From an uncultured Gemmatimonadaceae bacterium (GTDB lineage: Bacteria > Gemmatimonadota > Gemmatimonadetes > Longimicrobiales > Gaopeijiaceae): a stretch of 64,000 bases of DNA. Under the pieces are notes generated by a model. The model did not search any database, was not told the origin of the DNA, and saw only the letters and a list, made by a program, of their open reading frames with translations. The stretch spans positions 3,446,436 to 3,510,435 of the forward strand of contig CAWBNF010000001.1 in NCBI GenBank assembly GCA_963790115.1, read 5' to 3'. The position numbers were made by a program, and so were the translations under genes. How positions within the stretch are numbered: the stretch's first letter is position 1; the number at the start of each line of letters is the position of its first letter. This document shows positions 13,032-13,407 of this stretch, in pieces.

Positions 13032-13407
13032 TGAAAGAAGGACGGCCGGGTCGTGGGGCCGAGTGGGCAAAAGGATCCGCGAAGTTCGAACCCACGTCGA
13101 TCTGCGAAGCAGATCGCAGCGTGGGTTCGACTCGAGCGCGCCGAACAGACCGTCACGAAGTGCCGAGCGGGTACACCGCCGAGAGGACGGAGCGGAGCGA
13201 CGTCCATCCCACTCCCTCCGTGAAAGAAGGACGGCCGGGTCGTGGGGCCGAGTGGGCAAAAGGATCCGCGAAGTTCGAACCCACGTGATCTGCGGAGCAG
13301 ATCGCAACGTGGGTTCGACTCGAGGCGCCGAACAGACCGTCACGAAGTGTCGAGCGGGTACACCGCCGAGAGGACGGAGCGGAGCGACGTCCATCCCACT
13401 CCCTCTG
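13032..13407 (+). repeat. Tandem array A: two units (13032-13220, 189 nt; 13221-13407, 187 nt), each ending in the 3' end of tRNA-Ser(GCT)
   Basis: The units are near-identical by eye. ATCCCACTCCCTCCG occurs at 13017-13031 (in the tRNA) and at 13206-13220; 13393-13405 carries the first 13 nt of it. Each unit also has a D-arm-like GGCCGAGTGG, a ~45-nt hairpin, and a copy of the T-arm 5' half GCGTGGGTTCGA (13119-13130). Confidence 0.9.

Follow-up and report, generated by a model that had tools for sequence, protein, structure and literature searches.

The window (the whole 64,000-nt stretch of DNA analysed here) carries 17 same-strand tRNA genes in 11307–14402, and inverted copies of T-arm sequence recur between some of them. 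What are these inverted repeats: sites that act in DNA, debris of tRNA gene duplication, transcription terminators, coding sequence, or arms of a functional RNA? The original prediction left the choice between recombinase or nuclease recognition sites, single-stranded DNA intermediates and a functional structured RNA. Of these, the structured RNA fits our results, since the stems covary and the elements have kin among the TLR/RtT repeats of Escherichia coli, and the readings as a recombinase or nuclease site or a single-stranded DNA intermediate found no support. The larger four-way-junction unit of this known repeat class, of which the hairpins form one arm, had gone unrecognised.

The tRNA-linked repeats (TLRs) of E. 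coli tRNA and rRNA operons have been known since 1978, and 22 of them occur at 10 loci (Egan and Landy 1978; Rudd 1999, as cited in PMC8144298); among them are the 178-bp repeats of tyrT (RtT RNA). [quoted passage not shown] We put a probability of about 0.65 on the reading that the window contains TLR units, elements of one kind with the tyrT/RtT repeats of E. coli, and that its hairpins are their P2 arm in lengthened form.

Six tandem units follow three tRNA genes

Two tandem units each follow tRNA-Ser(GCT), tRNA-Ser(GGA) and tRNA-Pro(CGG), and we refer to these as A1/A2, B1/B2 and C1/C2. The six units are 118–189 nt long, all lie on the + strand, and each terminates with a copy of the last 15 nt of its own tRNA, from T-loop nt 59 to the discriminator; the terminal copies of the arrays carry one or two mismatches. 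Read along the sense strand, the plan starts with a tRNA 3′-end copy and a linker, followed by a strand complementary to the next 3′-end copy. A short connector (GAGAA, or TTCGAA in the Ser-linked units) then leads to the complement of the T-stem 5′ strand and a loop or nested hairpin, and the plan ends with a sense copy of the T-stem 5′ strand plus TTCGA, an R domain of 55–90 nt that opens with (C/G)(T/C)CGAG, and the next 3′-end copy. A unit is in effect an inverted repeat of the 3′ third of the tRNA in which the R domain interrupts the sense T-loop after nt 58.

In the first array, the last 15 nt (13017–13031) of tRNA-Ser(GCT) (12945–13031, + strand) are copied at the ends of both units. 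Unit A1 (13032–13220, 189 nt) has its P1 5′ strand at 13042–13057, which in the MFE fold pairs, with small bulges, with the 3′-end copy at 13206–13220. Arm P2 with its nested hairpin P3, the structure flagged in the original prediction, occupies 13086–13130 and consists, in order, of the complement of the T-stem 5′ strand and loop, a GAA-capped inner stem, and a sense copy of the T-stem 5′ strand plus TTCGA. The R domain, with helices S1 and S2, follows at 13131–13205, at the T-loop split between nt 58 and 59. Unit A2 (13221–13407, 187 nt) repeats this arrangement, with the P2/P3 hairpin at 13275–13318 and a terminal copy at 13393–13407 that has one mismatch.

The second array copies 13510–13524 of tRNA-Ser(GGA) (13440–13524, + strand). 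Unit B1 (13525–13666, 142 nt) contains a palindrome at 13550–13565, where the P1 5′ strand abuts the P2 5′ strand, the P2/P3 hairpin at 13556–13597, the GAA-looped hairpin Hb at 13629–13643, and the 3′-end copy at 13652–13666. Unit B2 (13667–13784, 118 nt) is degenerate: it has the palindrome at 13687–13702, a weakened hairpin, and a terminal copy at 13770–13784 with two mismatches. The third array copies 13866–13880 of tRNA-Pro(CGG) (13807–13880, + strand), and both of its units have the canonical form. In C1 (13881–14032, 152 nt) these parts are a linker hairpin (13886–13904), the P1 5′ strand (13918–13927), the motif GGATGAGAA (13924–13932), a P2 mini-hairpin with a GCA triloop (13930–13942), the S2 region (13998–14016) and the 3′-end copy (14018–14032); in C2 (14033–14179, 147 nt), P2 lies at 14080–14092 and the 3′-end copy at 14165–14179.

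Array content differs among relatives. Contigs from two metatranscriptome runs join window position 13666 to 13790, indicating that relatives in those two samples carry one B-type unit rather than the two of the window. In two genomes of the same genus, a stretch of ~440 nt lies between tRNA-Ser(GCT) and tRNA-Ser(GGA), where the window has A1 and A2; this stretch looks protein-coding, with an ATG start and ~100 codons.

The flagged hairpins align with arm P2

Sequence reading and a repeat finder recovered the structures described in the original prediction: inverted T-arm copies enclosing a nested stem at 13086–13130 and 13275–13318, the equivalent hairpin of the second array, and a perfect 16-nt palindrome in both B1 and B2. 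Folded as RNA, the three hairpins reached −33.5, −30.4 and −29.3 kcal/mol, far better than shuffles (z = −7.6, −6.2 and −5.6; 0 of 200 shuffles as good), and as DNA they folded equally well on either strand. Alignment to the model places them at arm P2, with an insert of 28–31 nt in place of the canonical 3-nt loop; in the Ser-linked units, that loop gives way to a nested hairpin with a GNA triloop at its tip. The small T-arm-like hairpin proposed to compete with the long one also exists, as a built-in consequence of P1 and P2 5′ strands that are adjacent and mutually complementary.

We searched for the family of the flagged hairpin with a pattern that fixes the outer arms only, and obtained 24 distinct homologues. 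The inner stem kept 94% of its pairing while its sequence varied, compared with 29–42% for slid partners, and showed double changes in 7 of 8 pairs. The outer stem is uninformative either way, because it is invariant by construction of the search pattern.

All five reported sites of GCGAAG(C) (13079, 13104, 13633, 13893 and 13968) are present, and the full list for GCGAAG adds 13268, 14045 and 14116. These 8 sites in 1165 nt compare with 0.73 expected at the genome-wide rate, and 5 occurrences of GCGAAGC with 0.24 expected, the copies being non-independent because the units are repeats. The oligonucleotide d(GCGAAGC) forms a very stable DNA mini-hairpin; the site at 13079 formed no hairpin on its own when folded. 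A related GAAG-loop hairpin had been noted in the tRNA-fMet trailer, and it is real (11390–11413, + strand), but its membership in the unit family is not supported, as the R1 unit model described below gave no match to the trailer.

Covarying helices form a four-way junction

RNAalifold, applied to a MAFFT alignment of 19 units, returned a four-way junction of helices P1, P2, S1 and S2, with P1 closing the unit and three arms leaving the junction: P2, S1, and S2, which encloses hairpin Hb. P1 pairs the upstream strand with the tRNA 3′-end copy, P2 pairs GAACC with GGUUC, and the helices join strands 40–130 nt apart. Across the 19 units, 91.4% of cells paired, against 27–47% with slid partners; 12 pairs showed compensatory change, and 0 of 500 shuffles attained the covariation score. 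A larger set of 78 distinct units gave similar values, with 90.9% of cells paired (28–48% with slid partners), compensatory change in 22 of 29 pairs, and again 0 of 500 shuffles attaining the score; this 78-unit alignment was fitted to the model, as an 80-sequence alignment was fitted to the model's structure, and kin sequences within them are non-independent. The sequence of P1 differs according to which tRNA is the host. Looking for the best ungapped P1 helix by a naive search gave too much noise when the motif was relaxed.

Hairpin Hb (13629–13643 in the window; columns 215/313 of alignment A3) contains an A·C mismatch, GAUCGC…GCGACC, that is conserved in 33 of the 43 units having Hb. This could be a protonated A·C wobble or a recognition feature.

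Strand-specific features fit an RNA of the tRNA-sense strand

Read on the sense strand, about 21 of 25 apical loops have a GNA sequence closed by C-G; 24 of 25 hairpins have a bulge of 2–4 nt on the 3′ side, with one hairpin lacking it; and tandem G·A pairs that flank P2 and S1 are conserved in all phyla with units. GNA loops, tandem G·A pairs and a one-sided bulge make sense on the tRNA-sense strand only. Counts of G·U versus A·C were 15:1 under a biased score and 11:5 under an even-handed one; in the large alignment they were 64 versus 69, with 33 of the A·C at one conserved position, and our reading of the strand does not rest on these counts.

From tRNA-Phe to the last tRNA, we found no promoter-like or terminator-like site on the + strand, and 11580–14402 contains no intrinsic terminator (hairpin plus T-run) on that strand. 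Ser-GCT, Ser-GGA and Pro-CGG are single-copy tRNA genes in the genome. A sense transcript through the units is expected, because there is no internal promoter-like or terminator-like site and single-copy tRNA genes (Ser-GGA and Pro-CGG) lie downstream of arrays. The sole terminator-like site of the array on the + strand is at 11551–11575, 5 nt before tRNA-Phe and thus where the 198-nt fMet trailer ends, and nothing promoter-like comes after it. In a search of public RNA runs, none contained the locus; the matches covered small shares of the stretch only, essentially tRNAs. Four metatranscriptomes gave cover of tRNAs and thin cover of related units, which could derive from DNA and does not establish expression in this organism.

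The units share their plan with E. coli TLR/RtT repeats

Like E. coli TLRs, the six units directly follow a tRNA gene on its own strand within an operon, here an array of 17 tRNA genes. They also have the tRNA 3′-end copy that starts in the T-loop: copies of 15 nt from T-loop nt 59, compared with 18–19 bp from nt 58 in E. coli, the window copy being shorter because CCA is not encoded. E. coli TLRs occur as one to five tandem units; there are two in each window array, and further units lie at five other loci and one orphan locus. In both systems, an upstream complementary strand forms the closing helix, and the Rfam RtT consensus (RF00391) has the same closing helix as P1, followed by a single-stranded 3′ tail, as do the window units. 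Direct comparison with the K-12 tyrT-tyrV-rttR locus showed the same order of parts and GAA-capped hairpins. The E. coli tyrT units and the window family have GGATGAGAA in common, and GGTTCGA followed by CTCGAGCG or, in degenerate form, (C/G)(T/C)CGAGCG. The window units differ in coming from a different phylum and a genome of 69% G+C, in having an R domain made of S1 plus S2/Hb and, in the Ser-linked units, the nested hairpin of 28–31 nt in P2, and in their hosts, which are Ser, Pro, Arg, Ile, Cys and Val tRNAs and tmRNA in the window's family and Tyr, Lys and Pro tRNAs in E. coli.

The Rfam RtT model (gathering threshold 45 bits) scored 133–138 bits on E. coli copies and 59.8 bits on a Zetaproteobacteria MAG as positive controls, whereas the window gave no RtT match with E allowed to reach 10, and 11 Gemmatimonadota loci gave none either. 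Scanning the window against Rfam without the gathering cut-off, at E limits of 1 and 10, placed no family on the units; the only returns there were weak sX4 matches that overlap tRNA-Ser. A covariance model, R1, was built from 19 Gemmatimonadota units only. R1 recovered all six window units, at 101.7 (C1), 96.5 (C2), 42.1 (B1), 26.4, 17.2 and 13.7 (B2) bits, and 4 of 4 E. coli RtT copies at full length and in exact register, at 19.6–26.1 bits (E 0.0015–0.035). Because these E. coli scores are near noise (~20–24 bits), the argument for kinship rests on the register of all four copies and on the shared motifs that are not of tRNA origin. R1 also matched units in Lentisphaerae and several Gammaproteobacteria, with Erwinia, Izhakiella and Neptuniibacter among the taxa matched. 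A sequence-only nhmmer profile of the R domain reached other Gemmatimonadota loci only, and not E. coli.

Units occur at other loci and in several phyla

The same plan is found elsewhere in the 4.07-Mb genome, where one to three units lie at each of five further tRNA loci, Ser-TGA (3 units), Pro-TGG (3), Pro-GGG, Arg-CCG and Ile-GAT, and at one orphan locus, after the 3′ half of a tRNA-Arg. A junction motif matched 18 sites in the genome, compared with 3 for a reversed control, and occurs in tandem arrays in many genomes of the same genus and family. The window is syntenic with a Gemmatimonadetes bacterium MAG, and unit copy number varies among same-genus genomes at orthologous tRNAs. A phylum-wide R1 search gave matches in 2 of 151 genomes, a figure that says little on absence because 22 candidates per genome were scored under strict filters.

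For a pattern scan of public genomes, in which by our estimate ~8,700 single chance matches were expected, we counted matches only if they had an upstream tRNA and a downstream 3′-end copy. Units verified in this way came from Enterobacterales, other Gammaproteobacteria, Zetaproteobacteria, Lentisphaerae, Verrucomicrobiales and Gemmatimonadota. The host genes across these taxa include tRNAs Tyr, Lys, Pro, Gln, Glu, Arg, Ser and Cys, plus tmRNA. With a diverged TLR form in a Gemmatimonadota tRNA array, the family therefore spans several bacterial phyla.

In a genome of the same family (G022), a TLR unit follows the tmRNA gene (700–1300 of the locus) and closes with a tmRNA 3′-end copy, indicating that the TLR class is not limited to tRNAs.

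Alternative explanations

The units could be decaying partial duplicates of tRNA genes, generated by unequal recombination or by template switching at the T-arm quasi-palindrome, with hairpins that are functionless by-products. A unit is literally an inverted repeat of the 3′ third of a tRNA, close relatives differ in copy number, decay is visible in B2 and in the terminal copies, and more than 40 years of study have demonstrated no TLR function in E. coli (PMC8144298). We nonetheless consider this explanation unlikely: S1, S2, Hb and the GAGAA linker, none of them of tRNA origin, are conserved across phyla with compensatory changes, and the inner stem of the flagged hairpin alters its sequence yet keeps its pairing in 24 homologues, whereas neutral decay would erase conserved non-tRNA motifs, helices and inner-stem pairing. 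Somewhat less probable again is action at the level of DNA, either as folded single-stranded recombination sites of the attC or REP kind or as leftover att sites at the tRNA T-loop. The boundary between T-loop nt 58 and 59 is a classic sublocation of integrase crossover, the hairpins fold well as DNA, and one family of units lies at a real island border, with an integrase by tRNA-Arg(CCG) and a displaced 3′ half 24 kb away. The tyrT/rttR region of E. coli is, in addition, enriched in exonuclease-resistant DNA under stress (preprint 10.1101/2024.07.17.603846). The genome has no match to Y1_Tnp (RAYT/IS200), however, and none of its eight tyrosine-recombinase matches is in the window, whose arrays have no integrase near them. 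Moreover, an arm spacing that varies from 1 to ~22 nt is unlike a recombinase core site, the covarying helices join strands up to 130 nt apart, and the non-Watson-Crick features, tandem G·A pairs and GNA loops, belong to the sense strand only. REP/BIME and integron attC elements resemble the units in being short, repeated, hairpin-forming intergenic sequences whose structure is conserved more than their sequence, but they work as single-stranded DNA and are served by enzymes of their own, Y1 or IntI; the window units have no linked enzyme, are strictly tied to tRNA 3′ ends, and keep the sense orientation.

Two further explanations concern expression of the array. That the hairpins are terminators or attenuators of individual tRNA transcripts seems to us improbable. 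Termination does occur inside the repeat region of E. coli tyrT, and in some units elsewhere a strong hairpin comes right after the tRNA 3′-end copy. The window hairpins, by contrast, have no T-run, and the sole terminator-like site on the + strand precedes tRNA-Phe; essential tRNA genes present in single copy follow on the same strand without an intervening promoter-like site, and each hairpin sits mid-way in a larger conserved fold. Least probable of all, and very improbable in our view, is a coding role, in which the conserved ATGAGAA would be the start of a small, arginine-rich peptide resembling E. coli Tpr. Annotation does place tpr within the E. coli repeat, and ATGAGAA is conserved across phyla, but among the 19 units the ATG is missing in 4, stops occur in 5 of the 15 others, and conservation ends after the first 9 residues; the Ser-linked units have TTCGAA in place of ATGAGAA, and substitutions are patterned as in paired helices.

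Maturation and possible role of the units

The best reading of the data is that the units are structured RNA of the sense strand, made in the same transcripts as the tRNAs and probably freed from them by tRNA end-processing. Transcription would run through the units together with the tRNAs, and tRNA end-processing enzymes may then cut the units out as discrete small RNAs, because P1 with its tRNA-identical 3′ tail imitates the acceptor/T-stem helix. This follows the proposal for E. coli RrB. The rrA/rrB/rrF elements, TLR class members behind 5S rRNA, give rise to read-through transcripts that are processed, and their authors propose the repeated 3′ end as the processing determinant (PMC8144298). 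They differ from the window units in being linked to 5S rRNA and in lying between two terminators, and binding of Hfq and CsrA to them has been shown in vitro (PMC8144298). The acceptor/T-arm module of tmRNA and tRNA minihelices likewise present a helix with a tRNA 3′ tail, and the units share a four-way-junction (cloverleaf-like) topology with these tRNA-like domains; the T-loop nucleotides of the units are base-paired in the favoured fold, and the resemblance is structural only. Arrays would grow and shrink by unequal recombination between the 3′-end copies.

A tRNA-mimicking small RNA, acting as a decoy or regulator, is likelier than a DNA site. As a more tentative proposal, which we regard as possible but doubtful, TLR/RtT elements may be an ancient class of tRNA-shaped, four-way-junction RNAs across phyla, each borrowing its host tRNA's 3′ end so as to be matured by the tRNA machinery, and having a conserved, cognate-specific role. 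Such RNAs might, for example, serve as decoys or sensors for nucleases, toxins, or modification or processing enzymes that read the acceptor/T region of particular tRNAs.

The published TLR descriptions found within the literature we could reach are from Enterobacterales only; TLR architecture with covarying helices is present also in Gemmatimonadota, Lentisphaerae, Verrucomicrobiales and Zetaproteobacteria, and its presence in these groups argues for a selected RNA structure rather than junk. The consensus fold (P1, P2, S1, S2/Hb) provides a basis for experimental design, and opens the role of TLRs to comparative analysis. For annotation, the units account for odd "partial tRNA" repeats and palindromes that are found in tRNA arrays of high G+C and that escape the current Rfam RtT model.

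Associated loci

Several observations concern loci outside the window arrays; the prefix C1 here denotes genomic coordinates and not the unit. The junction motif has four isolated matches that are not near tRNA genes, at C1:68543, 95745, 1534223 and 2763041. Two further regions, C1:2005030-2008063 and C1:2030179-2031105, concern tRNA-Arg(CCG): an integrase gene lies beside this tRNA gene, and a displaced 3′ half of it, with 2–3 TLR units, is ~24 kb away. The arrangement has the look of a genomic island that integrated in the anticodon-loop region of a tRNA with TLRs already attached. The displaced copy has a T-loop that continues straight into an R domain, and one relative has the same layout with the T-arm intact. 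An extra R1 match (34.8 bits, C1:2008450-2008559) lies near the orphan Arg locus.

The model for sX4, a Xanthomonas sRNA, gave repeated sub-threshold matches of 24–39 bits at window 13427–13559, over tRNA-Ser and the start of the following unit, and also in relatives; sX4 may itself be a tRNA-plus-trailer element. In G022, an RNase P RNA gene (267 bits; 294–684 of the locus) lies directly upstream of tRNA-Arg(CCG) and two TLR units.
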